DNA of 63,452 nucleotides, counting the filler, from Rozella allomycis CSF55 (taxonomy: Eukaryota), in assembly GCA_000442015.1 (NCBI GenBank). It is 11 parts of 11 records of this genome, joined end to end, with 100 filler letters (N's around TTAATTAATTAA, not from the genome) between each part and the next. Parts side by side here need not be neighbours in the genome. Positions count along the whole stretch, not along the records: positions 19,162 to 34,782 come from KE560476.1; 10 more parts are not named here. One strand, written 5' to 3'. Numbering within the stretch: position 1 is the stretch's first letter; each line of letters opens with the position of its first letter. Below, piece by piece: positions 6,351-53,660 of the stretch. The translations under genes and the position numbers were made by a program. The notes below the pieces were generated by a model that had not been told where the DNA came from, ran no database searches, and saw only the letters and a list, made by a program, of their open reading frames with translations.

Positions 6351-7745
6351 TTAGCCTCGTTGCCAGAGCAGTGATAAAATCGCAAGACCCAAAGAAAAGT
6401 CGTCAACATCAGAACCTGAATCATTTGATGACTTTGGCGCGGTGAAAACAATTTTAAGATTTGGCTTATGTTCTTTGAGTGATTCCTTCAATTTCTTATA
6501 AGATTTATTTTGATCACCTTCGATTTCAAGTAGGTCTAGTTTTGATTCGATTATACTTTGAGAAAATATACGAAGAGACTTGTCTAAATAGATATTTCGA
6601 GTCAGTCTCAAAGTCTTCAAATTAGATTCGGTCAGTGCGTTAAAAAAGCGATTGTTATATTTAATATAGTTTTCTTTTATATTTAATGACTGCAAACTAG
6701 ACACCTTTTCAATCAAAACAATAACATCTTTCACATCTAGTCCCGAGTTTGATATATCAAGATGTTCTAAACGATCAGGAAAACCATATGTAATAAGACT
6801 TCCATGAAGCTTAATATTCTTTGAACATGACAAATTAATACTCTTGAGTTTCGAGAGTCTAACCATTTCCATGAGGAGACCCCAAGACAAAGGATTATCG
6901 CCATAGCGATCAATGCCGCTTAGATTTAAATGATTCAAATTAAACATGGCGACATTAGTAAAAATATCAAACAAGTTACTAAGTGTTATATTGTTATCTG
7001 ATAGATCTAGAGACTCCACCTTGGAATTGTTTAAAAATTTTGTAAACTCTCGAGACTTAAAATTTGGAATATTGTTATTAGACAAATCCAAATGAATTAT
7101 TTCTGATTGAGATTTGGAAATTGATTTAATTAGCTCCACTTCACAAGATACTGTGGATTTTGTGATAGAGATAAGCTTTAATGATTTCTTTTTGCTCACA
7201 AATGGCGGTATTAACAGGCACACTTCTTTGGAGGGGATTCTGGCAATTTTTAATGATATCAAATTGACATTATCTTCGCTTAACACCTTAAGAGCACGTT
7301 TAAAGAGATCTTCGCTGTTAAATTTTTCAAAATCTAATATCACTTCGATTTTAGGATGCTCTTTGCTCGTAGACAAAAAGCGGAGCAACAGATTATAATC
7401 TTCAAAAGAATGTATAAGATTGAACCATAAAAATCCCATATGTTCTGTTTGCGAGAGTATATTTTCGTTAACTTTTAACAGAACGGTACTGCCCTCGACT
7501 TTTAATACTCGGCTTATATCTTTCTCGTTTGGATGCATTTTACGTAAATATTCATCAAAATCTTTAATCAACTTTCGATGTATACGTGAATGGACTCTTC
7601 CAAATCGGTACACATCTTGAAACGGGAGCCGTTCAGCAACCTTCAAAAGAATTTCGTTGGGAACATTTAGTATAGGAACTTCATTTGCTAATATTACACT
7701 CAGAATGACGTTTGTTATAAGCCAAAAATAAATAAACATTTCCAA
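6351..7745 (-). CDS. Predicted secreted F-box/LRR protein
   Basis: Hydrophobic N-terminus, F-box-like ILNVPNEILLKVAERL, repeated LDLSxNxI LRRs; intact 464-aa ORF. Confidence 0.75.
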   Translation of the reverse strand: MEMFIYFWLITNVILSVILANEVPILNVPNEILLKVAERLPFQDVYRFGRVHSRIHRKLIKDFDEYLRKMHPNEKDISRVLKVEGSTVLLKVNENILSQTEHMGFLWFNLIHSFEDYNLLLRFLSTSKEHPKIEVILDFEKFNSEDLFKRALKVLSEDNVNLISLKIARIPSKEVCLLIPPFVSKKKSLKLISITKSTVSCEVELIKSISKSQSEIIHLDLSNNNIPNFKSREFTKFLNNSKVESLDLSDNNITLSNLFDIFTNVAMFNLNHLNLSGIDRYGDNPLSWGLLMEMVRLSKLKSINLSCSKNIKLHGSLITYGFPDRLEHLDISNSGLDVKDVIVLIEKVSSLQSLNIKENYIKYNNRFFNALTESNLKTLRLTRNIYLDKSLRIFSQSIIESKLDLLEIEGDQNKSYKKLKESLKEHKPNLKIVFTAPKSSNDSGSDVDDFSLGLAILSLLWQRG

Positions 7746-8033
7746 CGAAGTATTACCAGATTAGGAAATTCCCAATAATATTTTCTGATCTGACAAGATC
7801 TGCAAGGGCAACATTTACGAATTGTGTTCAATAAATGTCATTTCAAANAAAATCAACTTTCTTTTTGGAATATACAATTTCTATAATTTTATTGAAGTAT
7901 TTATGCCAGTCTTCTCAGAATTATTGACGCATTCCTTTTTGCTCATGTAAAATTGATCATTAATCTGAGCCTGTGCCCTGTGATATACCACATTAGTTTC
8001 GATATTTTGCACATTGGACACTGCATGCGCGAT

Positions 8034-10244
8034 NCTTTACATCCAAATACTTTAAATTAGGCATTCTCTTCATAATAACAATAACTGTATTGATCATCAA
8101 GTCAGAATTTGAGACATCTATGGATTCTAAATGCTCCAACGTCAAGTGATCGTAAATGAATAAACACTTAAAAAGTTTAGGATTCGATCCAGATAAACCT
8201 ATGCGCTCAAGTTTAGATTTTTGGACTAATAGAAAAAGGTCCCCCCAAACATCATACCACTTTATACNAAAATTATGAAACTCAATAAGAATGTGTTTCT
8301 TCTAGTTCTTTGCTTTTTATTTTTAATTTTATTTAGAGAAATGTAAAGACCAGTTTGAGATTTGGCTTCTGTTCCTTTAGCTTTTCTTGAAATGTTTCAT
8401 AAAAACTTGACTTGTCTTCTATGTTTATAGCTATTTCCAAGAAATCAAGCTTTGAAGAAATAATACTGTCATAGAAAATATCCAAACTATTATCCAAATA
8501 ACGCGTTCTCGGTATTTTCAGGGTTCTTAAATTGGAATTGCGAAGTGTTTCATAGAATTGATCATCATAATCAAGGAAATTTCCTTTTACATCCATGTAC
8601 TTCAAATTAGGCATTCTCTTCATTATAATAATAACTGTATTGATCATCAAGTCAGAATCTGAGACATCTATGGCTTTTAAATTCTCAAATGTCAGGTGAT
8701 CGTAAATGAATAATGAATAGAAAACCTTGGGGCTTGATCCAGATAAACTTATGCGCTCAAGTTTAGATCTTAGGACTAATTCAAAAAACTGCCACCATAG
8801 ATCGCTATTTTGTCTACAAAAATTATCGTTGATATTTAAATATTTCAAATTATGTCTTGCTGGCCCTGTCAAGATTAGATCTACTGAAATACCGGGAATA
8901 CAGTTCTTTGAAAGATTCAGCGATTCCACTTTTGAATTCTTTAGATATTTTACAAAACGTGAATTGAGATTGCTTATATAATTGTCTGACAAATCCACAT
9001 GTGTGATTGTGGACATTGATTTCGATATGGATTCAAGAATTTTTAATTCACATGTACACCTAGTTTTTGTTATTGAAATGTGTCTCAAGGTTTTCTTTAG
9101 CTCGACAAATTTAGAAACTAAATCACAAATTTCTTGAGTGGGTATCCCGGTGACTCTTAGGGATACCAAATGAANCATAGATCGCTATTTTGTCTACAAA
9201 AATTATCGTTGATATTTAAATATTTCAAATTATGTCTTGCTGGCCCTGTCAAGATTAGATCTACTGAAATACCGGGAATACAGTTCTTTGAAAGATTCAG
9301 CGATTCCACTTTTGAATTCTTTAGATATTTTACAAAACGTGAATTGAGATTGCTTATATTATTGTCTGACAAATCCACATGTGTGATTGTGGACTGCGAT
9401 TTCGATATGGACTCAAGTATCNAAGATTCAAGTATTTCAAATTATGTCTTGCTGGTGTAAAGATTGGATGATATGAAAAACCGACAACACAATTGTTTGA
9501 TAGATTCAGCGATTCCACTTTTGAATCTTTTACATATTTTGCAAAAATTGACATGAGCATCCCTATATTATTGTCTGACAAATCCACATGTGTGATTGCG
9601 GACTGCGATTTCGATATGGATTCAAGTATCCTTAATTCACATGAACACCTAGATTTCGTTATTGAAATGTGTCTCAAGGTTTTCTTTTGCTCGACAAATT
9701 TAGAAACTAAAACACAAATTTCGTGAGTGATCCCGGTGACTCTTAGGGATGCCAAATTAACATTATCCTGACTCAAGAGTTTTAAAGCATGCCTGAAAAG
9801 ATCTTCGCTATCAAGATCGTCATAATCTAATAATACTTCGACTTTGCAGTACATTGAACCCATCGATTGATATTTAAGAAACAATCGAAAGTCTTCAAAC
9901 GAGTAAATAACATCTAAAGGAAGAAACCCCATGCCCAATGGGTGTATCAATGCTTTCTCGTTTGCCTTTAATATGACACTACTCCCTTCAACTCTAAGTA
10001 CTTTTCGTAAATCTACTTCCTTTGGATAAATTTCTTTTAAGTATCGCTCAAAATTTGTATTCAACGGTGCATGTATAAGAGAGTGGGTTCTCACAAACCT
10101 GTAAGCGTCTTGGGGAGTAAGGTGTTCAGCAATTTTTAAAAGTATTTCATTTGGTAAATTCAATAAGCTCGTTTCGTTTGCTATTTGAATCGCTATAACG
10201 CCTAAAAGCAGATTTTGGAACATAAACAAGAATATTAAAAGCAT
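8034..10244 (-). CDS. Secreted F-box/LRR paralog(s), fragmented at single-N joins
   Basis: ORFs 9354-10244 (signal peptide + LLNLPNEILLKIAEHL + LRR), 9157-9378 and 8333-9178, plus fragment 8034-8268. Confidence 0.7.
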
Positions 10245-10321
10245 TGCTTGAAAATTGTAGTATCTTTCAACCCTTGTCGTCTTTATGGATAGATTAGGTA
10301 ATTAGAAAAGTTAATACATAN

Positions 10322-10806
10322 ACATTATCCTCACTCAAGAGTTTCAAAGCATGCCTGAAAAGGTCTTCGCTGCCAAGATCGTCATAATCTAATAATACTT
10401 CGACGTTGTAGTACATTGAACCCATCGATTGATATTTAAGAAACAATCGAAAGTCTTCAAACGAGTAAATAACATCTAAAGGAAGAAACCCCATGCCCAA
10501 TGGGTGTATCAATGCTTTCTCGTTTGCCTTTAATATGACACTACTCCCTTCAACTCTAAGTACTTTTCGTAAATCTACTTCCTTTGGATAAATTTCTTTT
10601 AAGTATCGCTCAAAATTTGTATTCAACGGTGCATGTATAAGAGAGTGAGATCTCCCAAATCTGTAGATGTCTTGCGGAGAAAGTTGTTCAGCAATCTTTA
10701 AAAGAATTTCATTTGGTAAGTTTAATAAGTGTGTATCTTTTGTTATTTTGACAGTTAGAACGCCTAAAAGCAAGCTGTGGAATAGAAACGAGAATATTAA
10801 GAACAT
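10322..10806 (-). CDS. Secreted F-box/LRR paralog, N-terminal part
   Basis: Signal-peptide-like start + F-box; nearly identical to 9761-10244 downstream of the F-box. Confidence 0.7.
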
Positions 10807-11220
10807 TGCTTAAAATTTTACTACCCCGGTCCTTTTGTGGATAGATTCGGTAATTAGCTAAATAATTTTAGTTAAAGATTTTTTTAAACATATCAACTTG
10901 TAGATAAAGGGCAAATTAGATAGAAAAATTAATATAAAAATAGATCTATATGCATAGGAAAATAGACAGGCAAAATTGATGAATTGAACGTAATAACAGA
11001 GTTGAAAATTATGAACTCTAACTTCTTTAATAACTTTTACTTGATTTTATAGGTTAATTGTTACTAAAATCACATTTGATGTTCCATTTTCATCAAACAA
11101 TTTTCCTGTGGCCTGTACACGTTTTTTGAAATACTATGTTTCATTTTAAAAGCCTCGATCAGCCAATTTTTTTGATTTGATTGATTTTTAACATGGAAAA
11201 TTGCAAAAGTGAATTTCGGA

Positions 11221-13471: not shown

Positions 13472-13571
13472 NNNNNNNNNNNNNNNNNNNNNNNNNNNNN
13501 NNNNNNNNNNNNNNNTTAATTAATTAANNNNNNNNNNNNNNNNNNNNNNNNNNNNNNNNNNNNNNNNNNNN
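13472..13571. other. Artificial 100-bp linker (also at 16934, 19062, 34783, 37310, 39201, 45727, 53661, 54840, 62237)
   Basis: N44-TTAATTAATTAA-N44, with stop codons in all six frames. Confidence 0.98.
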
Positions 13572-13967: not shown

Positions 13968-14403
13968 TTGATGAAAAACTACGAAACTGTAACTGTAGCA
14001 ATCCTTACCCCGAACACTTCAGCTTACCGTCATTTGGGACAAATCCGAATTCCAGATGTACACATGTTTCTTCAACTCCAAAAAGCAAGCAATAATCAAG
14101 AACTCCAGTGAAAGACAAAACGACACTGGCGCAAGTTCAAATTACAGTCACCAAGTGTCCTGAAATATTATTTCTTTCTCGTTATAATATTTGGTGACTT
14201 AACAACTTTAAAGACGTTACCGTTGTGGCTCCTCGTTTGAACTTGCGCCAGTGTTGTTTTGTCTTTCATTGGAGTTCTTGATGGTTGTTTGCCCTTTGGA
14301 GTTGAAGAGACATGTGAACTCCTGGAATTAGGATTTGTCCCAAATGGCGGTAAGCTGTAGTTTTTGGGGTAAGGATTGCTACAGTTTCGTAGTTTTTCAT
14401 CAA
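13968..14403. repeat. ~170-bp diverged inverted repeat (13968-14140 vs 14237-14403)
   Basis: Both arms translate to LMKNYETV..ILTPxTxAYRHLGQI..P.VHM.LQLQ.A.N.QELQ on opposite strands. Confidence 0.9.
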
Positions 14404-19061: not shown

Positions 19062-19225
19062 NNNNNNNNNNNNNNNNNNNNNNNNNNNNNNNNNNNNNNN
19101 NNNNNTTAATTAATTAANNNNNNNNNNNNNNNNNNNNNNNNNNNNNNNNNNNNNNNNNNNNCAAAAAAAATAAAAAAAATTGACATGTTAAACTGAATAA
19201 TAAATGTTATAATTACTATAATTAT

Positions 19226-20233
19226 TTATTTAGCAGCCTTCGTTTTATATTTTTTCTTCAATGATCTCCACTTCTATTGTCATTAAGTAATAGTACTTAC
19301 TTCAACGTTGCATCTATTATTTGACGACTTTGAAAAATAGTCAATGTAGTATTCCACTGCTTCATACGCGTCCTTAGAACCTTTTCCAAACCCTGATCCC
19401 ATTTTAATGTATCTTAGACAATTACATTCGTCATTTTTACTTTTCTATATTCTCATAATCATTTTGATATGCAAAATTAGGACCTACTAAAATGGCAGCT
19501 CCTTTTTTTTCGAACACCGTAACAACACAATGCGGCACGAAGGGCTTAAAAGTCATGACGGTTCCAGGTAACTGGACATATACCTGGGGTTTGTCTTTAT
19601 ATTTGAAATAACTTTACAATTTAAAAGGTTTTTTTACCTTAATAATTCTGCTTCGTCGCATGTATATGAGGAAAATTTCGTATTAAATTTAGTTATGCGC
19701 TTCCAAAATAACCAAATTTTGGCAACCTTGACTTTGGTTGGAAGAAACCATGCAAAATTATGCCCCATATCGATGTGTCGATAGGTGACATAATCTCCAA
19801 AATGCGCAAAAGCTGTAAATGTTGGAACACAAACATTTGTACAATCTTTTATCATCCTACATTTTTAAACTCTACTTAATGTTACTTATCATTGAAATGC
19901 TGTAATTCCTTTTCAATAAGTAGAACTGTCTTTTCTTGACCACTTTTTAAAATGTCGTCAATTCTACGCTGTAGCTCGGATTTAGTTATTCCTTGGTTAT
20001 CATAAATATAACTTGTTATTACCAAAGTTTTGATACTGGTTTCCCGCCCACAAAACAACATCTCTTTTATCTGCTTCCCACGTTTTAATATTAAATACTC
20101 CTCTGTCGCATATACTCACATTCGAGTGATAATGCGCAGCCAGAGTTTTTAATATTTGTGGATTGATTTTGGGTTTAAAACCTATCTTCTTCGTCAACAG
20201 AGCCTCTCTGTTCGCTTTTCTCATACAAGCCAC
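19226..20233 (-). CDS. JmjC-domain 2OG/Fe(II) dioxygenase (5 introns; start uncertain)
   Basis: Removing GT-AG introns 19992-20022, 19857-19885, 19612-19637, 19413-19440 and 19274-19300 gives one frame: ...YVTYRHIDMGHNFAWF...KIWLFW...VQLPGTVMTFKPFVPHCVVTV...AILVGPNF...KAAK*; HxD...H triad present. Confidence 0.8.
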
Positions 20234-20746
20234 CTATGTCCCTCAAGCCTAATACATATCCCTTTTTACGTTTTTTCACCTGAAACATATATAATTGTTT
20301 GTAGCGTATGCTGATGTGTCGCTACCACTCATAAATGACCAACAGTCACCACTGGAACCTCGTTGCCTTAAAACATTGATTAGGTAACATTAATGTCTGC
20401 ATGGCGAGCTCAAATTTAAATTTTAATGTAATGCAGGACATATGTCAATCTCATTTATATATAAATGATGTATCTGTCATGAATGGTGTTTCCTTTTAAG
20501 TACGTTTTGTACCAAATATGCCTGCCTAAAACCCATTTGTGAATGAGAGTTACTTATGTTATAACTATTAACTCTTTTAGGGGCTAAAGATATCATAGAT
20601 AAAGTTTTTTTAAAAAACGATTGTGTCGTCTTCAATGGTGTCCCTTTAGTGCACATAGCATTACATTGCTACAATTTATCAAATATCAGAATACAAAATT
20701 ACTTGTTATGATCTAATATTTGTTCTCTCTACGTCTCGCGTATCCC

Positions 20747-23700
20747 ATGTTGCTAACGACGACGACCATCAATCAAATGTGCGCTGACAACAATTCCTAT
20801 GTATGCGATCCGTCTTACGTATCTCACATGAACGAATATGTTTCTGCAGTTGGTGAACTTGAGTTAACATCGGTGGCGATCAAGGAGAGAATACTGAATG
20901 AATCAAAGTCATTAGGTTATGCTCTGTCTGTTGTTCGGACAGACAAGAATAAAATAATTTTGGCCTGCAGTAGGTCAAAATATCCGTCTTGCTTAGCACG
21001 GGTTAGAATATCAACGTATAAAACAGAAATTGGAAAGATTGGTTTGCATGTGTTTGAGCATAATCATCCTCCTAGCGACAAGGTTACAACACTTCCTGAT
21101 AATGTTGATGATGCTATTCGAAGCTTCACACAAGCGCAAATGAATTCGTTTCAAATACATACTGCCATACAGGTAATGTTTCCAGACAATCATATCCCTA
21201 TACATACAATAGTGACAAAAGTGAAAACAATGCGTAAAGAGCTTTTTGGTAGCACGGGAATTGAATATGATAAACTAATAAAGCAAATTGAAACTGAAGA
21301 GAATACATACACACGAATACAGGTAGAAAGAGATTCATTAGGGACAGTGCTAAATTTTATGTGGAGTGACACGCGCGCGCTAAATAACTTTGAATCAACT
21401 AATTGCGATTTGCTACTTGTCGATACTACATACAAGTGCGTAAAATTTGACCAATCACTTGCATTATTTGTATCTATGGACTGTCACGGTGTATACTATA
21501 TTGTTTCAGCTGCTCTGATTTCTTTAGAAGACGCGCGTACATTCACATGGTTAATTAATAATCTCAAAAGTCTTTGTCCAAAGTTGGGTACTAGTCACAC
21601 CATAATCTTCACTGACAATGACGCTGCTATGACGTTAGCATTTGAGGGCATGGCATTTCTTTCGCATTACCTTGATCTATTTTATTTTTTGCAAGCCCTA
21701 GACCGTAATCTCCGATGTCGCATGCATCAGTACGAAAACTTCCGTCGCACTATACGTCGTCATATTCTTTGCATATCTTCNCTTCCTACTTGTCGATACT
21801 ACATACAAGTGATCTATGGACTGTCACGGTGTATACTATATTGTGTCAGCTGCGCTGAGTTCTTTAGAAGACGCGCGTACATTCACATGGTTAATTAATA
21901 ACCCTAAAAGTGTTTGTCCAAAGTTGGGCACTAGTCACACCATAATCGTCACTGACCATGACGCTGCTATGACATTAGCATTTGAGGGAATGGCATTGCT
22001 TTCACATTACCTTGATCTACTTCATTTTGTGCAAGCCCTAGGCCGTAATCTTCGATGTCGCATGTATCAATACGAAAACTTCCGTCGCACTATACGTCGT
22101 CATATTCTTTGCATATCTTCAACTGAATTGGAGTCGGAAATACCAAATCTTGTTAATTAGTTTCACATTACTAAGGCCGGACGTGAATACATACAGAATT
22201 ATGTCGTTCCTATTCTCCCAAAGGTTTGCCGAAAAGATAGAAGTCATGTATTTGATTTAGGAGTGTCGGGTACTAACTCATGTGAGGCATTTAATCGTGT
22301 CATTAAGAGTTACGGGGCGAACTTTGCGTCGCATGCCTTATCATTGATGCAAATAACTGATTTCATATTTGACACTTACACTGAGAAGTATAAATCTATA
22401 ATTGAACGTAAGGCCCAATTAGTTAATGTTTCAAATATGTCCCAATCTGAAAAGGATTTAAAACAGCGCCTCGGAGCCTATGCAGAGTGTAAATTACTGA
22501 AACAAATGCGAAAAGCTATGTTCTTAGACGTTGTGTCTCACAGCGACAATTGCACATATAAAATATCCAGTAATGACATTCAAGTGGCCACTGTAACATT
22601 AAATGATAGCGATGATGACATTAACCGTGTCTATATTACAAGCGCAAAGAAATTATTTGCTCACACATTGTGGCCGTAAAACAAAAATTGGGTCAATCTG
22701 TCTCCTTTAACGACTGTATTCCTCGTTGGCATATGCCCGTCATTAACGAACCAATGTGTCTTCTGGGTCCTCCAATGTAGTGTCAATGACAGTGCGTCCT
22801 CAAACGTCCCTGCGCGAATGCCGCCTAAAATAACACGCTGTCCATAAGTTAATGTATAATGAAGCTTTTAACAGCGTTGAAAAACTACAGATCGCAATTG
22901 ACGGTTGCCAACACACATACCAATGTCTGTTTCTAAATGTTTCCTCCTTTGATCCTCCAGCTAGGCAAAAAAACGTTCTTAACGAAAAAAAAGTGCAAAT
23001 TAAAATTCAAAAGTATTCGGTTTATTAATATCTTAAATGTACTTCTTTTCCAATAGCCCATCGGTCCCCTTCCGTTTGAGTGAATATGCGCATTCGTCTA
23101 AATCGAGTAAATAAATGTCTCCNTTAGTTTCACATGACTAAGGCCGGATGTGAATACTTACAGAATTATGTCGTTCCTATTCTTCCAAAGGTTTGCCGAA
23201 AAGGGAGTGTCGGGTACTAACTCATGTGAGGCATTTAATCGTGTTATTAAGAGTGACGGAGCGAACTTTGCGTCTGATGCCTTGTCATTGATGCAAATAA
23301 CTGATTTCATATTTGAAACTTACACTGAGAAGTATAAATGTATAATTGAACGTAAGGCGCAATAGTTAATGTATCAAATATGTCCCAATCTGAAACGGAT
23401 TTAAAACAGCGCACCGGAGCCTAGGCAGAGTGTAAATTACTGAAACAAATGCGAAAAGCTATGTTCTTAGACGTTGTGTCTAACAGCGACAATTGCACGT
23501 ATAACATATCCAGTAATGACATTCAAGTGGCCACTGTAACATTAAATGATAGCGATGATGACATTAACCGTGTCTATATTACAAGCGCAAAGAAATTATT
23601 TGCTCACACATTGTGGCCGTAAAACAAAAATTGGGTCAATCTGTCTCCTTTAACGACTGTATTCCTCGTTGGCATATGCCCGTCATTAACGAAACACATG

Positions 23701-23960
23701 TGTCTTCAGGGTCCTCCAATGTAGTGTCAATGACAGTGCGTCCGCAAACGTCCCTGCGCGAGTGCCGCCTAAAATTACAAGCTGTCCATAAGTTAATGTA
23801 TAATGAAGCTTTTAATAGCGTTGAAAAACTACAGATCGCTATTGACGGTTGCCAACACACATATCAAAGTTTGTTTCCTCAAGAGTCCACAAATGTTTCC
23901 TCCTTTGATCCTCCAGCTAGGCAAAAAAGACGTTCTAAACGTAAAAAACGTGCAAAATAA
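20747..23960 (+). pseudogene. MULE (Mutator) DDE transposase with SWIM finger; two overlapping versions, each with stops/frameshifts
   Basis: N-terminal ACSR...C...EHNH, LLVDTTYK, IFTDNDAAM, GTNSCEAFNRVIK, PCLYY...ICSHIVAV (SWIM), basic C-terminal tail. Confidence 0.9.
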
Positions 23961-23989
23961 AATTCAAAAGTTTTCAGTTTATTAATATC

Positions 23990-25536
23990 TTAAATATACT
24001 TCTTTTCCATAAGCCCATCGGTCCCCTTTCGTTTGAGTGAATATGCGCATTCGTCTAAATCGAGTAAATAAATGTCTCCATTTGACAAATTTAAGCCCAC
24101 ACCCGTACCGTGCGGAGATTCATCGTACCAAATGTTCGTGACGTCCTTATTGATTTTTTGTTTCAAGTATTGGTAAATTGCTTCTGTAATATTGTAACCA
24201 TCACAATTTAGTTTAACCTTCCATTTTGCTAATACTTTTTTAGGTTCGCACGACAACGCTGCACAATGCATTGGTACATGGCGATCCATCTCACAAGCAT
24301 GTATAAGGGGCGCTTCATGAAAAGTTATTAAAGTCTTCTTAAAATTGTCCAATGTAAATGACAAATTCGTATCTAAAGGGGGTTTTCCTAGCTCAAATTT
24401 TTTAGATTTCCACATGCGAAAATTTTGATTGTAATTATAGACTCCTCGATCAAAAAGAAAATGAAAGTCGTTGCCTTGCAAAAGCGGCACAAGCAATGGG
24501 AATCGGCCATTAACTGTCCAATGCAGCCTTAAAAACCATCCGCTGTCACACCATGTTCATCATACATTGGATATGCCAATTCGTATAAATTATTCACGAC
24601 CCATCTTAGAACAGCGCAACAACGCTCAATAGACGGAAACACAAACTTTTGAAAAACTAAATGTAAACTAATTTTTGTCCCTTTCGACGCGTCCAACACT
24701 ATCACATTATTGACAATTTCTTCCGCATCGTTTATACCCATGCCCCTTAAGGCTTTTGCAAGATACCATTTAAGACTATCCACGACTGCTTCTTTTCTTA
24801 CTAAGCTTTGAAACTCATTAATGACTGCTTGATATTGACAGTCGATGTCCATAAAGAATTTCACGGGCACATTTTTGCGAACTATTTCGTAGCAAGTCTT
24901 GTTGCAGCTGCCTAAAACACTATAGTAATCAAAAAATGTCTTGATGTCAGTGTAAGCATAGTGACGGGCACCCGAGCTATTAACTTCGCGCGAAACAAAA
25001 ATCTCATTTTCCACTGTTTGTTCGTNACGGAAACACAACCTTTTGAAAAACTAAATGTAAACTAAATTTTGTCCCAGTCGACGCGTCCAACACTATCACA
25101 TCATTGACAATTTCTTCCGCATCGTTTATACCCATGCCCCTTAAGGCTTTTGCAAGATACCATTTAAGACCCTTCACTACTGCTTCTTATCTTACTAAAC
25201 TTGGAAACTCATTAATGACTGCTTGATATTGACAGTCGATGTCCATAAAGAATTTCACGAGCACATCTTTGCGAATAATTTCGTAACAAGTCTTGTTGCA
25301 GCTGCCTAAAACACTAAAAAGGTCACAAAATGTCTTGATGTCAGTGTAAGCATAGTGACGTGCGCCCGGCTATTAACTTCGCGCGAAACAAAAATCTCAT
25401 TTTCCACTGTTTGTTCGTTACTTGATGTTAGACACTTATGCAATTTGCGATGCCATTCAATATCCGCTCTTAACTTTTTTAACTTAAATGCTTCCAGTGG
25501 CGATATAGTAACCAAAGTTCTTTTTGAATTCGACAT
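23990..25536 (-). CDS. PrimPol-like archaeo-eukaryotic primase-polymerase (one frameshift at a T-run near 24530; duplicated segment at N25026)
   Basis: GARHY...FFDYY...CYEIVRKNVPVKFFMDID (motif I), DASKGTKISLHLVF (motif II SxH), FDRGVYNYNQNFRMWKSKK (motif III). Confidence 0.85.
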
Positions 25537-25863
25537 TCTAAAGTTTCACTTGCAACTCCCCGTTTATATACCCGTATGTTTCATTTTTAATTGGTTCAAA
25601 ACCACCATTACCCCTAACTCCTTCTATTCTTAGGACATTCTTCTTTATAATTGGTTCAAAACGTAATTTTCATAAACTATATATACACTATACCGCTGAA
25701 TTTGCATATGACTAAACGAGGTAAACACTTTATCGTATCGTTCAATGAGCAAGCGATGCAGAACATACCTGCCCACCGGATACTACAANTACATTCTTGT
25801 TTATAATTGGTTCAAACCGTCATTTTCATAAACTATATATACACCATACCGCTGAATTTGCAT

Positions 25864-27575
25864 ATGACTAAACGAGTTAAACACTTTATCATATTGTTCA
25901 ATGAGCAAGCGATGCAGAACAATTCGGCCCACCGCATACTACAAGCTTTTGATTCAGCTACAAATGTTCCGCCTACTACAGTCACAGGTATTTTGGACTT
26001 AGAAGCCGCTGCAGATAATTCAGATGCCGCAACAATCACTACNCTACTGTCACAGGTATCTTGGACTTAGAAGCCGCTGCAGATACTTCAGATGCCGCAA
26101 CGATCACTACTTTCGTTCTAACAAAATCGTCGGAGGGTCAACAATTATCCTCCTTTTTGTCGTTTAACAAAACGAAAAGACTAGGTCGTCATTTTCTCTC
26201 ACGTATCATTACACACAACGTACACATTCAAAGTGTTAAAGCACTTAAACGTAATTGGAAACATGACTTAATTGCTTTGATCCAAGGTTGCAACAACAAT
26301 TACGAGGTACTTAGGGGGACTATGCCAGACATTAGTTCCTCAAAAATGATTTCATTAATAGATTTTTATGCAATTGCATGTNACTTTGATCCAAGGTTGC
26401 AACAACAATTACGAGGTGCTTAGGGGGACTATGCCAGACATTGACACGGTAGTTAGTTCCTCAAAAATGATTTCATTAATAGATTTTTATGCAATTGCAT
26501 GTGATCATAAATTTCACGACGAATTATGCCTTTTTGCCTTTATTCAAAACCACGAGTCTTCATTTGACATTCAATTAGAACAACTAGCTTTTCAATTAAA
26601 ACTTTCGTAAACCGAAATATGCACTCTAAAAGCATGTCCGTACGTGTTGCCGAAGCAATTTCTTGGGGCGAGTCTCGTCAAGAGGTGTCNCTGACATTCA
26701 ATTAAAACAACTGGCTTTTCAATTAAAAACCTTCGTAAACCGAAATATGCACTCTAAAAGTATGTCTGTTCGTGTTGCCGAAGCAATTTCTTGGGGCGAG
26801 TCTCGCCAAGTGGTGTCTAGACGCCTGCAATCTCGTATGGACATTTTGCATCACCTCAAACCACAAGAGCGCCCTATCGAAACAGATAATATATATTTGA
26901 TTTTGCGAACGCATAATTTAGATCCGCATATCTTTCGTGCGGCTTTACTCAANAGGTGTCTAGACGCTTGCAATCTCGTATGGAAATTTTGCATCACCTC
27001 AAACCACAAGAGGGCCCTATCGAAACAGATAATATACATTCGATATTGCGAACGCATAATTTAGATCCGCATATCTTTCGTGCGGCTTTACTCAAATTTA
27101 TATTTGCCGATGTATCAAACGAAAACGTCGGCTATGCCTTATTGGTTCTTCCAATACCAACAAAAGCAAAATAGCACAAGGCTTATGCGACATATTGAAG
27201 TCTGCGACTTTAATAAGTGAAAACACCGTTTACAAGTTAAAGCCACTTCTCAATGCAGAGCTTATAATAATTCCTGAATTGCAAAAATTATTTAATTCCA
27301 GAGTATTAAAGGAACAAGACCTGCTTGCATTATTGTCTGAGGCAAACACTTTATCAATTCCTGTTTCCAATGACGGAAAACAAAAAAAACTCAATCTAAA
27401 TACACCCATATTTATTATGAATCAAAATGACAATTTTGAAAAATTCACAGACATTTCATCCTTAAAAAACAGGTTAGAAATAATACATTTCAATGGCCCG
27501 GCATTTTCAAGCAACCTTCAACTTCCAATCACCGGCCATGCACTTGCTTACTTTCTTTTGACACCAAATGAATAG
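25864..27575 (+). CDS. Parvovirus NS1/Rep-like superfamily 3 helicase (duplicated pieces at N joins; -1 shift near 27117)
   Basis: NIYLILRTHNLDP...KRKRRLCLIGSSNTNKSKIAQGL (Walker A), ELIIIPE (Walker B), TPIFIMNQN (motif C), SLKNRLEIIHF (Arg finger). Confidence 0.75.
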
Positions 27576-27714
27576 ATATACTTAATAATAAAGGCTATTA
27601 AATATTTTATTTTCTTTAAACCTTTCTATTTTTAAATTTATATATCAGCCACAGTGGATTAAACTCGAGCCAGTGAGGCGCATTACTTGCCATTCCATTC
27701 CACCAATCATATTT

Positions 27715-27763
27715 CTTCTTACCTATGGGGTGTGGTCACACCCGGGGTGTAATTTCTTTAGCC
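27715..27763 (-). repeat. Right terminal inverted repeat with GC hairpin
   Basis: Reverse complement is GGCTAAAGAAATTACACCCCGGGTGTGACCACACCCCATAGG. Confidence 0.8.
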
Positions 27764-27899
27764 GAAAATCCTAAACCATTCAATCAACCAAACCAAATCA
27801 AAGAACAACTAAAATAAGAAATATAACAACAAATTAATGAACAATTCAAACAAAACAAGAACGAATCAATCAAATGATGATGAAAGAGAATAATTCTTT

Positions 27900-28330
27900 A
27901 CACCAGAATATAAAAGGGAAGCAATCAAGAAATAAGCGATCAGTTTCCAACTCATTTCTCTGATTCATCTTCATTTTATCAATTAATCCATCTATCCATC
28001 TATCATACCACATACGATTTTACTTTTGCCTTTAGCCTCCCAGTATTTTCGAATTAGTGTGAAATCGTGGAAGTCAATTTCTTCCTCCCATTGGTTGTAT
28101 GATGGATCATGATTCTTCCAGTTTACCAAATATTCTGATGTATTGTCAGCATTTAGTCTGTGTTCTAATATCTTTTCGACTTGAACAGCTTTGCTGTTTG
28201 GATCCTCGTTAACTGGGGTGCCATGGAATAATATCAATGTATGAGGAGGGCGAGTATTTATGGTGCCATCTGGACCTAAAAGTTCACAGGCGCCACCTTT
28301 GTTTCGTCTGATTATTTTGAAAGGCCCAGT
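27900..28330 (-). mobile_element. Ty3/gypsy chromovirus 3' end (integrase GPF motif, chromodomain, probable LTR)
   Basis: GPFKIIRRNKGG; VEKILEHR...EYLVNWK...YNQWE chromodomain; 27915-28011 resembles 29170-29266. Confidence 0.8.
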
Positions 28331-28552
28331 TTTTAAAGTATGGACTATTCATTAAATTTGAAAATAGCAATGTAAAGCCGTTGTGGCTGAGTTTATTTAA
28401 AAGTTTTTCTTCAGCCTAGGTACNCTAGTAAGAGAATTTGTCTGGTTTTCCGATGGGTTTTTAATTGATACTGGTATTGTTTTCTTTCGTTTTTGCAAGC
28501 ATTCTGTTGAAGTAATCTTTAGTGGCAAAGAAGCTAACGAATCTAAAATCTA

Positions 28553-29007
28553 GGGCAGATCAATTCCCCGCACCATGTTGGTCATGTCCCTACACCACCT
28601 AAATAAAACTTTGAAAAAATGTCAATTGCCCGCACCATTTGTCATTTTCCCGCACCACCTTAAAAAAACATTTCCCCGCACCACATGAAGGACTTGTCAA
28701 AGTTATGCGTTAATTCGACATAGTACAACTCGCCCATTACTTATCGAAGCAACATAGCTTGCATGTAACAGTCGGGACAGAAAAAACTTAAAGAACTTAA
28801 GAAAAAGGGCGACTTTCGCATGAGAAAGAAGACAGAAAACAGGTCACTGAATTTGTACGCAGGAATATATTATAAATATGAATAAATGTATTATTATGTA
28901 TATGCGCAACACCTATATATATCTATTTCTGAATTGAGATTTTGGTGTGAGTTTTTGGTGGTGCGGGGAAATGACATTTTTTGGTGGTGCGGGGAATGAT
29001 GATCTCC
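28553..29007. mobile_element. Non-autonomous MULE-type MITE
   Basis: GG...CC ends; imperfect TIRs built of CCCCGCACCA units; 9-bp TSD TAAAATCTA (28544-28552) / TAAAATCCA (29008-29016). Confidence 0.75.
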
Positions 29008-29266
29008 TAAAATCCAGGTAAACCTTAATGAAGTGTTAGCACACATCAATGAAGTCAGAAGAATAATCTCAAAGAAAGAAGAAGAAGAAAAAAGTGAATC
29101 AATTATAAATGAAAACAATGTATTAGAATCTTCCAGACGAATGGTAGCTATGACAACGTCAGCATATATAAAGGAAGCAATCAAAAAAAAACAAGCGGTT
29201 TCCAACTCACTTTTCTGAGTCATCTTTACTTTATCAATTTATCCATTCATTCATCTATCTTGTTAC

Positions 29267-32227
29267 AAACGATTATATCCTGTTCCTATCGCATTGACAA
29301 ACTAACAGGACCACCAATTATCACACATGGGCGCTGGAGTTCCGCTAAGTCCTTGAAGAATTGGACCTTGATCGCTTTTGCACATCGCCTTCGTATCCAT
29401 TATCTAAATCCAATGCTACCTGACCAAGCCTATAATACTATCCCGGCCACTCCTCCCGGGTGTTGCGATATCTTTCATTTAGAAAATCATGCTCCTCACA
29501 CATGTCAACATCTTCCACTTTGGTATGTGCCAGGAAAATCTCAGTACCTGTTTTGCAAGCATTGTCGCACTGCCGTCACAGTTTCCAGAACTGTTATCAC
29601 CCACCTGCACCATGGGAAACAAGGCGTGACCGGGGTTATCAACAACACCGAAGACGGAATGCATTTCCTAAACCACCTCGTAGACAACAAGATGACCCTC
29701 CTACAAGAAGCGACGAGAATCTCCAACAAGAATCACGACTTGTTCACAATGATGAAGATCCATTTAACCCAAACATATTCTCTAATTGTCTTCATTTAAC
29801 AACAAACAATTTACAAAAACCATGCCATCTCATCAGGTAATACTTGGCTTGTTGACACAGGGCGCACTCATCACATGACTAACAATATCAATCCCTTTCA
29901 GTACTATCACGAAAATGCTAATCCACCTGTTAGATTTGCAAAGATTGGTCTCATTGAAGTTCCAGATTCAGCGTTTGTCACACTCCAGGTGCTATTGCGC
30001 GATGGCACAGTCAAGCCTTTTTCTTATCTAATGTTCTCTATGTTCCAGACGTGAATCATATTTTATTTTCCTGCGAGATCCGAATGTTTAAAAGAATCGT
30101 GTGTTGTTTAGTGATGGGTTTTGTACTGCTGAAGACAAGGTCACTGGAGAAATTTTGTTGGAAGGTATATATGATGGTCGATTTTATCTTATTTTACTCT
30201 AAGAGCCGCGATCTTATCATCTGTAAGTTTTAATCAAATAAATACAATGAATTTGTGGCATGAGAGACTTGGTCATGTGAACGAGGAAACAATCAAACAG
30301 ATGTGGAAAAACCANAGAGGTTCATTTTTCCGTGTTCTTAATTCGTCAGTGACCATGACATATGCTCCTGGTTGAAGATTAAAAATTCTGTTATATTCAA
30401 GGCATTCACCCCCTTCTAGTGTCGCTTTTGTATTAGACAACTTATTAATTTCAGGATACACAATCGATGTCGTTTAGTTAAGATCGATGTCGTTTAGTTA
30501 AGACGAGCCTCCAACTCTATTGGTGATAAAGATATTAACTCTTTTTAATTATTCTAATTCCTAAAAAAGTTAGGAGCCCTTGCGAACATCAACGAAAATG
30601 GTGTAGATTTTGTTGTGTCAGAAACTTTTAGATTACAAATGTATTGTGATTGAGCAACATAGTTATCCCATTCACGAATTTGATCTTGAAGCCAATATGT
30701 CTTTTAGCTATGCCATTAGCACGAGGATTGGATGGAGTTATTAACCTGAATTAACAAGTTGATTCACAAATTATGTACCATTATCAGATCGTCTCCAATT
30801 GTCTTCATTTAACAGCAAACAATTTACAATTACAACAAGCAACATTGCCAGGAGAATACTATCACATGACTAACAATATCAATCCCTTTCAGGACCATCA
30901 CGAAAATGATAATCCACCTGTTAGATTTGCAAAGACTGGTCTCATTGAAGTTCCAGATTCATCGTTTGTCACATTCCAGGTGCTATTTCGCGATGGCACA
31001 GTCAAACCTTTTCTCTTATCTAATCTTCTCTATGTTCCAGACGTGAATCATAATCTATTTTCCTGCGAGATCCGAATGTTCAAAAGAATCGTGTATTGTT
31101 TAGTGATGGGTTTTGTAGAAATTTTGTTGGAAGGCATGAATGATAGTCGATTTTATCTTATTTTATTCTCAGAGCCGCAATCTTATCATCTGTAAGTTTT
31201 AATAAAATAAATACAATGAATTTGTGGCATGAAAGACTTGGTCATATGAACGAGGAAACAATCAAACAGATGTGGAAAAACCAAACCTTTGATGGAATGA
31301 AGCCTTTTAATTAATCAATTGAAAATAGTTCTGGATTCGCTTATATTGAATAATTAGCACAGAAACGTGATGCCGCCGAAGCCATCAAGACATTCATAAG
31401 GAGAATCCACAATAAGCAAAGTTGTAGAATCAAAACAATTAGATCTAATAGAGGTGGAGAATTTGTTAACGGACCTTTAAAAGACTTTTGTGGCCAAATT
31501 ATGAAATTCTAAAACAGGGTATGAATACATATAAGTAATTAGGGGTATTCACCAGGTATGTCATGTATATTCCTTTGACAAAAATGCAAGCAGAAACGAA
31601 ACTGCAGGAGAAGCTTTTGTTAATCAATGGATTAGTATTTTTAGTTTTGCTCATAAAATTTTGTCAGATCAAGGAAGTCAATTCATGGGTAAGNCTTAAT
31701 CATAAGCTTGATTTCTGTGAATCTTGTAGACAGAGCAAATTAACTAGGTCATTCTTTAAAAAAAGCTGTCGCCAAGAGGTCGACGTGGGACAATTTTGGC
31801 ACACAGGTTTTATGGGTCCCATTAATACAACAAATCTAGGACGCAAGATAAATATAATAACTTTCATTGAAAATAGTTCTGGATTCGCTTATATTGAATA
31901 ATTAGCACAGAAACGTGATGCCGCCGAAGCCATCAAGACATTCATAAGGAGAATCCACAATAAGCAAAGTTGTAGAATCAAAACTATTAGATCTAATAGA
32001 GGTGAAGAATTTGTTAACGGACCTTTAAAAGACTTTTGTGGCCAAATTATGAAATNGAGCATATGAAATTATTGGACTATGACTCAGTGAAATGCAAGCT
32101 AGTAGGTTATAACTTAAATTCATAAGCATGGCGCTTTAATGTAATTGGAACTAATAAAATAATTATCTCAACACAGACAGTGTTTCACAAAATTAAGAAA
32201 GAATATATCACACTACAAGAAAATCCT
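29267..32227 (+). mobile_element. Degenerate Ty1/copia retrotransposon (duplicated pieces, interleaved with gypsy fragments)
   Basis: CKHC...H...C knuckle, WLVDTG.THHMT protease, LWHERLGH, CESCRQSKLTR, IRSNRGGEF integrase, KCKLVGY. Confidence 0.85.
30316..30770 (-). mobile_element. Ty3/gypsy integrase C-terminal fragment
   Basis: WDNYVAQSQYICN...STPFSLMFARAP and PGAYVMVTDELRTRKNEP. Confidence 0.65.
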
Positions 32228-34782
32228 GGCTAAATCTATACACACCCGGGGTGTCTGAACACCCCCGGTTCAGAGTNTGAAAATCGCATATAAATGGAAG
32301 CCTGTTTAGCAATAATGCATTCTGGGATTCAACTCCATCAATGTGGGGCGAAGCAATTATGGTGGCAAACTACATACAGAACAGAACAGGAAGACAACAA
32401 CATTCATACAAGANTATCAACAACTTCTACATCAACCGCAGATCATCATCAAACATTAGGAAGAGTGAAGCGTATTAATAAATTTCTTTATCAAATTCTT
32501 TATTTATATTTATCAATGAAAGTCAAAAAAAATTGGGAAATTAATTTACCGATATTTGCCCTTTGCAGATAACTCCAGTATTGTTGAATCCCCTATGTTC
32601 ACTCCTCATTATCATATGTTTGGCCAAAAAGCAAATTTACCTACAGACATTGTATATTTAGATCNGATTTGACATGGATTTATCATGGCTGGCTTGGGCT
32701 TAACTTAGAAAACATTTTGGTCTTCGTCAAGAATAATAATAATAATTGTAATGTTAATCTGCATAATTAAATGTTACTATAATAATTTATTTAGCAGCCT
32801 TCGTTTTATATTTTTTCTTTAATGATCGCCACTTCTATTTTCATTAAGTAATAGTACTTACTTCAAAGAAATTGCATCTATTATTTGACGACTTTGAAAA
32901 ATAGTCAATGTAGTATTCCACTGCTTCATACGCGTCCTTAGAACCTTTTCCAAAGCCTTATCCCAATTTAATGTATCTTAGACAATTACATTCGTCATTT
33001 TCTCTTTTCTATAAGGGCTGAAATGTCATGAAGGTTCCAGGTAATTGGACATATACCTGAGGTTTTTCTTTATATTTGAAATAACTTTACAATTTAAAAG
33101 GGTTTTTGACCTTAATAATTCTGCTTCGTCGGATGTATAGGAGGAAAATTTCGTATTAAATTTAGTTATGCGCTTCCAAATAACCAAATTGTGGCAGCCT
33201 TGACTTTGGTTGGAAGAAACCATCCGAAATTATGCCCCATATCGATGTGTCGATAGGTGACATAATCTCCAAAATGCGCAAAAGTTTTCATTGAAATGCT
33301 GTAATTCCTTTTCAATAAGTAAAACTGTCTTTTCTTGACCACTTTTTAAAATGTTGTCGATTCTACGCTGTAGCTCGGATTTAGTTTTTCCTTGGTTATC
33401 ATAAATAGAACTTGTTATTACCAAAGATTTGATACTGGTTTCCCGCCCACAAAACAACATCTCTTTTATCTGCTTCCCACGTTTTAATATTAAATACTCC
33501 TCTGTCGCATATACTCACATTCGAGTGATAATGCGCAGCCAGAGTTTTTAATATTTGTGGATTGATTTTGGGTTTAAAACCTATCTTCTTCGTCAACAGA
33601 GCCTCTCTGCTCGCTTTTCTCATACAAGCAACCTATGTCCCTCAAGCCTAATACATATCCCTTTTTACGTTTTTTCACCTGAAACATATATAATTGATTG
33701 TAACTAATGCTGATGTCATAAATGACCAACAGTCACCACTGGAACCTCGTTGCCTTAAAACATTGATTAGGTAACATTAATGTCTGCATGGCGAGCTCAA
33801 ATTTAAATTTTAATGTAATGTGGGGCATATTTGAATCTCATGTATATATATATGTATCTGTCATGATTGGTGTTTCCTTTTAAGTACGTTTTGTACCAAA
33901 TATGCGTGCCTAAAACCCATTTGTACATGAAAGTTACTTATGCTATAACTATTAACTCTTTGAGGTGCTAAAGATATCATAGATACAGTTTTTTTAAAAA
34001 ACGATTGTGTCCTCTTCAATGGTGTCTCTTTAGTGCACATAGCATTACATTGCTAAGATTGAGCAAATATCGGAATACAAAATTACTTGTTACGATCTAA
34101 TATTTACCCTCTCTACGTCTCGCGTATCCCATGTTGCTAACGACGACGACCATCAATCAAATGTGCGCTGACAACAATTCCTATGTATGCGATCCGTCTT
34201 ACGTATCTCACATGAACGAATATGTTTCTGCCGTTGGTGAACTTGAGTTAACATCGGTGGCGATCAAGGAAAGAATACTGAATGAATCAAAATCATTAGG
34301 TTATGCTCTGTCCGTTGTTCGGACAGACAAGAATATAATAATTTTGGGCTGCAGTAGATCAAAATATCCGTCTTGCTTAGCACGGGTTAGAATATCAACG
34401 TATAAAGCAGAGATTGGAAAGATTGCTTTACATGTTTTTGATCATAATCATCCTCCTAGCGACAAGGTTACAACATTTCCTGATAATGTTGATGATGCTA
34501 TTCGAAGCTTTATAAAAGCGCAAATGAAATTCGTTTCAAATACATACTGCCATACAGGTAATGTTTCCAGTCAATCATATCCCTATAAATACAATAGTGA
34601 CAAAATGGAAACCTTCCGTAAAGAGCTACGGGAATCGAATATGATACACTAATAAAGCAACTTGAAACTGACGAGAATACATACACACGAATACAGGTAG
34701 AAAGAGACTCATTAGGGACAGTGCTAAATTTTATGTGGAGTGACACGCGCGCGCTAAATAACTTTGAATCAACTAATTGCGA
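32228..34782 (+). mobile_element. Second, partial copy of the JmjC-MULE element, including the left TIR
   Basis: GAAAATCCT|GGCTAAATCTATACACACCCGGGGTGTCTGAACACCCCC; 32770-34782 collinear with 19200-21412; JmjC copy has deletions; transposase ATG at 34131; retro fragments lie between N32277 and N32666. Confidence 0.8.
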
Positions 34783-34882
34783 NNNNNNNNNNNNNNNNNN
34801 NNNNNNNNNNNNNNNNNNNNNNNNNNTTAATTAATTAANNNNNNNNNNNNNNNNNNNNNNNNNNNNNNNNNNNNNNNNNNNN

Positions 34883-53508: not shown

Positions 53509-53660
53509 GGTGACTTTGACGATGTGGATCCTCATCCTTAATAAATATGATTATTGAATTAATTGTATATATATTTTAAAAATATGATTATTGAATTAAT
53601 TGTATATATATTTTAAAAAAATATTTATTAAGGATGAGGATCCACATCGTCAAAGTCACC
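53509..53660. repeat. 152-bp foldback: perfect 40-bp TIRs enclosing two ~37-bp direct repeats
   Basis: 53509-53548 is the exact reverse complement of 53621-53660. Confidence 0.9.

Follow-up and report, generated by a model that had tools for sequence, protein, structure and literature searches.

In the genome of Rozella allomycis CSF55, a PrimPol-type AEP gene very probably belongs to an element of the Mutator superfamily, in which it lies between a MULE transposase gene and an SF3 helicase gene. With a probability of roughly 55 %, we read this AEP as the DNA-synthesis enzyme of an approximately 6.5-kb transposon equipped with a replication module of its own. The window analysed, a stretch of 63,452 nucleotides, is an N-spaced concatenation in which the contig of the finding (G000:C128) covers only positions 19162-34782. 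Spacers of 100 bases, consisting of N runs and the linker TTAATTAATTAA, separate the contigs (13472-13571, 19062-19161, 34783-34882 and others), thus genes on either side of a spacer are not neighbours. The original prediction had compared the AEP gene with neighbouring host genes; this comparison falls away with the concatenated structure, as just 19162-34782 represents this contig. Elsewhere in the window, tandem genes on the minus strand (6351-10809) combine a hydrophobic N-terminus with F-box and LRR pieces and resemble secreted F-box proteins. Imperfect palindromes at 13968-14403 and 53509-53660, about 78-80 % self-complementary, are possibly MITEs.

Architecture and copies of the element

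The features of the element in this contig are:
19226-20233, minus strand: fourth gene, situated in subfamilies A and B on the stretch from the left TIR to the transposase; to the eye it resembles a cupin/JmjC protein (HxD...H)
20747-23960, plus strand: MULE DDE transposase with SWIM finger, ending 29 bp short of the AEP stop, with N-joined duplicates here too
23990-25536, minus strand: PrimPol-type AEP gene, ATG at 25536, stop at 23990, here in two N-joined haplotype pieces
24633-25421 (24633-25028 / 25027-25421), no strand: 396-bp tandem duplicate, 93 % identical, single N at 25026
25708-27575, plus strand: gene of an NS1/E1-like SF3 helicase, in head-to-head orientation to the AEP gene at a distance of 171 bp
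27664-27763, minus strand: right TIR, ends TTTAGCC
27764-27772, plus strand: right copy of the 9-bp TSD, GAAAATCCT
32219-32227, plus strand: left copy of the 9-bp TSD, GAAAATCCT
32228-32276, plus strand: left TIR, starts GGCTAAA
32728-34782, plus strand: left subterminal region, fourth gene and transposase 5' end once more, in another version (94 %)

The transposase matched Pfam PF10551 with an E-value of 4.8e-12 and 46.6 bits against a cut-off of 27.6, and the SWIM finger was present. The TIRs are imperfect, as seen in the 10 ends aligned. Mutator elements and MULEs generate TSDs of about 9 bp, and 9-bp TSDs flanked all three insertions with both ends assembled (window, C217 and C616). The TSD was perfect in C217, where the interior is collapsed, and 8/9 identical in C616, a 4672-bp insertion with pieces of all three genes. 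The left TIR is scaffolded after the right end, either by a permuted assembly or as part of a second copy. Each of four runs, from three studies, contained the empty site (32218>27764), its joint being ambiguous over 9 letters. Once duplicates are removed, the element measures about 6.3 kb, not counting the left end, and roughly 6.5 kb overall. Pieces of the fourth gene had no Pfam match, and the gene was not seen at this place in subfamily C (C656). The target site of the element lies inside a high-depth repeat (27764-32227) with Copia-like pol pieces (Pol_BBD match at 30755-31192); other copies of this repeat are empty. Both TIRs (27704-27763 and 32228-32276) contain repeated ACACCC/GGGTGT motifs, inverted and with variable spacers, which are candidate binding sites of the transposase or helicase, or weak hairpins. 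Terminal palindromes folded better than shuffles (z < -2) in only 3 of the 10 ends, which we do not take as evidence for hairpins.

Matches to the AEP were found on 10 contigs: seven with the same MULE, two with the 5' end of the helicase gene head-to-head, and the last of 528 bp. The order of transposase, convergent AEP and divergent helicase recurs in subfamilies A (window), B (C597, C616) and C (C656), the AEPs of which are 55-75 % identical. The intergenic gaps are short and conserved, with 29, 36 and 15 bp between MULE and AEP, and 171 and 115 bp between AEP and helicase. The three-gene arrangement is known from one species, and nearly every copy in the assembly is broken. The original prediction of a transposon-encoded AEP was borne out by the position of the gene inside a TIR- and TSD-bounded Mutator element. 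Joints at 21035>21352, 21599>24240, 21941>24253 and 22156>24165 trace a rearranged derivative, whose transposase contains a piece of the AEP in inverted orientation; this derivative was seen at high depth in three of four runs, and C198, C712 and C1016 look alike. The surroundings of the subfamily C copy (L012:608-5555 on C656) include an unrelated MULE, a fragment of hAT type and a dioxygenase-like ORF split by another element end.

Frame breaks in the AEP gene

Single Ns inside the contig link near-identical duplicates of 91-95 % identity, therefore the frames of the contig were judged piece by piece. The tandem duplicate at 24633-25421 evidently represents two haplotypes or copies placed end to end by the assembly, and because of it the AEP motifs I and II are present twice. 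A second assembly of the same strain contributes P0191, the unbroken AEP copy on record (383 aa), and P0007, a truncated protein that ends at the same stop as the window, near 24530. In a residue-by-residue comparison, P0191 tracks the downstream duplicate first and the upstream duplicate later, while P0007 does the opposite; thus the window crosses two haplotypes or copies. Four breaks, a frameshift, a stop and two single-base insertions, interrupt the gene:
24510-24535, minus strand: two single-base insertions near 24530, about 18 nt apart, DNA compared with P0191 (decayed copy)
25187-25372, minus strand: the 5' duplicate, of the same decayed copy, is frameshifted near 25370 and has a premature stop at 25187-25189

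A single frameshift in a homopolymer, possibly a sequencing error, had been proposed originally. The count has to be corrected to four breaks plus an N-joined duplicate, and the break at 24530 consists of two insertions, no single homopolymer slip. The breaks are real variation of a decayed copy and not read errors, because P0007 shares the stop and contigs of two studies (X2 and X5) span 25370 with no gap; X1 and X2 are one sample, which may be the source of the window. One X4 contig joins 22260-22625 to 23571-24975, lacks the duplicate and is two bases shorter, with two gaps. The window thus combines parts of an unbroken copy with parts of a decayed one. The break at 24530 lies within a GT-AG stretch of 23 nt, and Rozella introns are similarly small; an intron at this site was rejected because two more breaks lie upstream in that copy and the unbroken copy needs no splice.

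Identity of the AEP

The conserved motifs of the AEP are located as follows:
24841-24852, duplicate 25235-25246, minus strand: motif I, MDID (D99/D101 of P0191)
24652-24669, duplicate 25046-25063, minus strand: motif II, SxH (K157/S159/H161)
24443-24457, minus strand: Asp of motif III, LFD (aligned to D280 of the human chain)
24416-24430, minus strand: NQNFR

The functions of the individual motif residues we take to be those of human PrimPol. The catalytic residues are kept in all three subfamilies. A natural AEP protein with an open frame has the accession RKP17813.1. A natural unbroken frame of 330 aa is provided by P0001, a paralogous AEP copy on contig C597. Compared to the PDB by sequence, P0001 matched human PrimPol with an E-value of 1.1e-8. 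Its AlphaFold model (pLDDT 81) had human PrimPol as the best Foldseek match (E 1.7e-11), and in the VIA comparison 198 residues were aligned to human PrimPol with Z 18.4, rmsd 3.0 and 29 % identity. Poxvirus D5/E5 followed with Z 15.5 and 16 % identity (given for D5), the ASFV primase with Z 10.7 and herpes UL52 with Z 10.1; viral predicted structures matched the model at just 10-20 % identity. Fold and motifs I-III are those of the PrimPol/NCLDV-herpes clade of the AEP superfamily. Judged from the model, the AEP is a PrimPol-type enzyme, closer to cellular PrimPol than to the primases of poxvirus (D5), ASFV and herpesvirus. The assignment to the PrimPol clade with motifs I-III, made originally from the window, agreed with the motif positions, the PDB sequence match, Foldseek and VIA.

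C-terminal region

The C-terminal region (23990-24310, minus strand) consists of a linker with a Cys/His cluster, followed by a helix-plus-sheet domain. By homology, this domain corresponds to the first half of the domain that bears the finger in relatives, with the four zinc ligands absent. The UL52 finger (Pfam PF03121) gave no match in the element proteins, and the ligand-bearing segments were also missing in the alignment; a C-terminus devoid of a C-H-C-C finger had been anticipated correctly. There is no space for an extra AEP exon, since the transposase stop lies 29, 36 and 15 bp off in three copies. The nearest relatives outside the element (P0011, P0083 and P0059) retain the C-H-C-C pattern. 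Further near relatives are P0084, P0020, P0027 and the chytrid protein KAJ3094531.1; P0059 is encoded on a contig of 8.9 kb. The subfamily C tail aligned with the tail of P0083 (z 13.4, reached by 0 of 300 shuffles; hhalign E 2.6e-4), in one of 27 pairs compared, the remaining 26 having z values of at most 3.6. In the multiple alignment, the Cys-His loop is deleted and the last Cys pair substituted in the element AEPs. Because the nearest relatives keep the finger and the P0083 tail aligns, we infer a secondary loss in which the ligands disappeared and the scaffold was retained. A profile of the element C-terminus scored 10.7 against 79 pooled finger domains, no better than shuffles (median 10.9), and the C-terminal domain, which was not folded alone, matched no fold clearly (best Z 5.8). 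The Cys/His cluster in the linker (24257-24310, minus strand) is conserved across the three subfamilies and is situated in a low-confidence part of the model; it may be a new metal site and serves as a lead only.

Host PrimPol and origin of the AEP

The host has a PrimPol of its own on contig C861 (L067:305-1710), with 410 aa, six introns of 24-38 nt, a DVE motif and an intact finger; it was the sole match in a PF03121 search of the genome. A quick tree was built from 96 rows (matches of at least 300 aa, 13 of 109 left out for want of a motif III pattern). In it, the host gene joined cellular-type PrimPols in a group of 74 (support 99), to which the element proteins did not belong. A careful tree of 36 of these rows, selected after the quick tree, grouped the element proteins with four metagenomic proteins (97/97). 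Constraining them with the host gene cost 30 log-likelihood units (AU p=0.022). The trees have long branches and sample the hits to the query, the only two organism-named rows being a fish PrimPol and a chytrid protein. With matches on 10 contigs, the element AEP is not single-copy, and by trees and AU test it does not belong with the cellular PrimPols. It is hardly credible that the AEP is simply the PrimPol orthologue of the host, or was recently duplicated from it: cellular PrimPol is the best match by structure and PDB sequence, but the separate gene on C861 with DVE, introns and finger, the split in the trees and the AU result against a shared clade speak against it, subject to the long branches. 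The original prediction would have fallen with a branching as the single-copy host orthologue; the phylogeny placed the element AEP apart.

The DxD of motif I (MDID), also noticed originally, is present but loses its value as a pointer to a viral origin, since DxD is common among relatives: it occurred in 39 of 120 parseable relatives, 20 of the 39 having the finger pattern (a crude pattern parsed 120 of the 135 rows examined). Likewise, the absence of introns had been taken as a sign of a viral or mobile origin and is not diagnostic. A cellular PrimPol paralogue captured long ago is as compatible with these data as a viral source. Many compact PrimPols of 350-400 aa with intact fingers (P0013-P0123) are encoded on metagenome contigs of up to 13 kb. 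These ENA metagenome proteins were considered as viral kin and rejected, as they retain the finger and fall among the cellular PrimPols in the trees.

SF3 helicase

SF3 helicases of the NS1/E1 type are known for origin unwinding in viral replication. The helicase of the element possesses the SF3 Walker A, Walker B and motif C, with Walker A reading GPSNTGKS in subfamily C and GSSNTNKS in the window, where the copy is probably decayed. Matches to Pfam PPV_E1_C had E-values of 1.5e-5 and 6e-5, both below the cut-off, and a PDB profile search yielded weak P-loop matches at most. ESM features placed the helicase at 0.95-0.96 to parvovirus NS1-like clusters. The N-terminal part reached 0.80-0.82 to Rep/E1 origin-binding domains, a level attained by a third of the shuffles, and an HUH His pair was not visible by eye; a Rep-like N-terminal domain is thus a lead only. 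The AlphaFold model had a pLDDT of 42, so that a fold search from it is meaningless.

Selection

Fifteen pairwise codon comparisons were made, of which the subfamily C pairs were the three cleanest, with dN/dS values of 0.064 for the AEP (230 codons), 0.12 for the MULE (330) and 0.079 for the helicase (347). Between subfamilies, pN/pS ranged from 0.18 to 0.47 with dS near or at saturation. Two close pairs were near-neutral (pN/pS 0.76 and 0.66), therefore recent decay is assumed. All three genes are under purifying selection. These values bear on the view that AEP and helicase are passenger cargo in the manner of Pack-MULEs, captured and not serving the element, perhaps serving the host. MULEs with captured gene fragments are described in the accessible text of a review (PMC6431247), and the majority of the copies is broken. 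Cargo is nonetheless very unlikely here: the genes are whole, their strong purifying selection matches that of the transposase, their order is conserved across subfamilies of 55-75 % identity, and none of the 10 AEP-matching contigs presented a TIR-free parent.

Proposed function

In the replicative reading, the MULE transposase would cut the element out and reinsert it elsewhere. The SF3 helicase would bind the ends via its N-terminal Rep/E1-like domain and unwind the excised DNA, and the finger-less AEP would follow behind the helicase, mostly as a primer-dependent polymerase elongating 3' ends. Candidate 3' ends are the excision ends, folded-back termini or host-made primers. One excision could thereby give rise to several insertable copies. 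A primer-dependent polymerase would be expected because human PrimPol without the finger loses priming and gains polymerase activity and processivity, as far as the available text of that study goes (PMC5295015). According to the same text, the processivity of the finger-less enzyme is still poor and its fidelity low (PMC5295015), which would make it a poor replicase, ill-suited to 6.5 kb. A further point against this reading is the source of the primer, which neither the AEP, lacking the finger, nor the helicase, with no visible HUH pair, accounts for.

AEP and helicase might instead help transposition at the donor site or on an intermediate, by gap fill-in, template switching or microhomology joining, and raise copy number or excision in the way of the bacterial IS-excision enhancer (IEE). 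We regard such a role as unlikely. IEE works in trans from a separate locus and not within the element, and the helicase belongs to the NS1/E1 type, a viral origin unwinder. On the other side, the genomic evidence is the same as for a replicase, and short repair synthesis would be a fitting task for a polymerase of poor processivity that lacks the finger (PMC5295015, from the portion accessible). IEE itself is a PrimPol-helicase with an effect that requires an active transposase, as given in the available part of the report (10.1101/2023.06.07.543989).

Quite unlikely is a capsid-less or helper-dependent virus or plasmid replicon, with an adomavirus- or PLV-like AEP and SF3 helicase, that captured a MULE for integration, comparable to Teratorn with its piggyBac, and relies on genes elsewhere for its packaging or spread. 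The approximately 6.5 kb between the TIRs is taken up by four genes, none of them capsid-like, and the ends and the 9-bp TSD are Mutator-like. IMG/VR scans, which detect close relatives only, provided no relative. In favour, adomavirus genomes contain genes for an AEP and for an SF3 helicase of E1/LT type (10.1101/341131), PLVs combine a primase-helicase with an integrase (PMC10120064, PMC11296320), and MULEs insert into PLVs and virophages of a protist (10.64898/2026.07.28.741278), in each case by the accessible portions of these sources. The three diverged subfamilies with saturated dS would also fit a long independent replication.

For the AEP as replicative polymerase of a Mutator element, a wider claim can be made tentatively, at a little below even odds: the element may represent a previously undescribed class of capsid-less self-synthesizing transposons. 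Such a class would join the transposase of Mutator elements to an SF3 helicase of the parvovirus/papillomavirus type and to a PrimPol that was turned into a replicative polymerase by the loss of its finger, or that primes via a new Cys/His module. Finger-bearing relatives would be expected in other zoosporic fungi and protists. If true, the union of Mutator, PrimPol and SF3 helicase would be a third design, linking cut-and-paste transposons with the replicons of small DNA viruses; the known eukaryotic self-copying transposons use PolB and an rve integrase. A natural finger-less PrimPol under purifying selection also offers a ready test of the role of the finger, and of AEP initiation and extension without it.

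Comparison with known systems

A word-indexed homologue search with the AEP returned three matches, all from Rozella, and a search with the AEP alignment six, five from Rozella and one input sequence. None of 8000 scored candidates was a homologue of the helicase. PHROGs gave no match, IMG/VR scans no relatives, and a metagenome scan one locus with a chance match of 23 aa in an unrelated prokaryote-like ATPase. The blank IMG/VR, metagenome and homologue searches are no proof of absence, because the methods reach close relatives only. A Mutator element with AEP and SF3 helicase was not described in the accessible full-text literature (including PMC5751038, PMC6431247, PMC11071296, PMC11296320 and PMC10120064), a coverage with Repbase and most subscription papers outside it. 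A MuLE is listed in Rozella in PMC5751038, the word 'primase' occurring 0 times in the main text as available. The MULEs inserted in PLVs, as far as the accessible text describes them, are a different arrangement from the Rozella element (10.64898/2026.07.28.741278). New elements from other pairings of polymerase or primase with integrase were anticipated in the available text of a review (PMC6431247), and the module of this one species suggests a variant of the self-synthesizing transposon idea.

Eukaryotic PrimPol (CCDC111; PDB 5L2X, 7JK1) has the AEP fold and motifs I-III in common with the element AEP. The latter differs in the missing C-H-C-C finger and C-terminal RPA-binding tail, the DxD, the multi-copy state, the absence of introns and the location on a transposon. 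With Mutator and MULE transposons, including Pack-MULEs, the element shares a MULE DDE domain above the Pfam cut-off with SWIM, TIRs starting with G, the 9-bp TSD and derivatives with internal deletions. What sets it apart from other MULEs are the conserved AEP and SF3 helicase under purifying selection.

Polintons/Mavericks and casposons are also bounded by TIRs and TSDs and encode an integrase together with their own DNA-synthesis enzyme. The Rozella element has a MULE instead of rve or Cas1, a PrimPol-type AEP instead of PolB, no recognised capsid gene and about 6.5 kb; neither a protein-primed PolB nor an rve integrase was located between its TIRs. PLVs and adomaviruses possess the same two classes of replication enzymes, AEP and SF3 helicase. 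In contrast, the Rozella element has no recognised virion genes, its AEP and helicase are separate, divergent genes, the helicase is NS1/E1-like and not D5-like, and the ends are those of a MULE. Between the TIRs, in a fragmented assembly, capsid or packaging genes were not recognised and have no space. In IEE, an AEP and a helicase are likewise functionally linked to a DDE transposase, as one fused bacterial protein acting in trans, whereas the Rozella element encodes the two as separate genes inside the element. Teratorn, the fusion of piggyBac and a herpesvirus, likewise unites a DDE transposase with a virus-type replication kit; by the accessible description it has about 90 genes including capsid and PolB, compared to four genes in the Rozella element.
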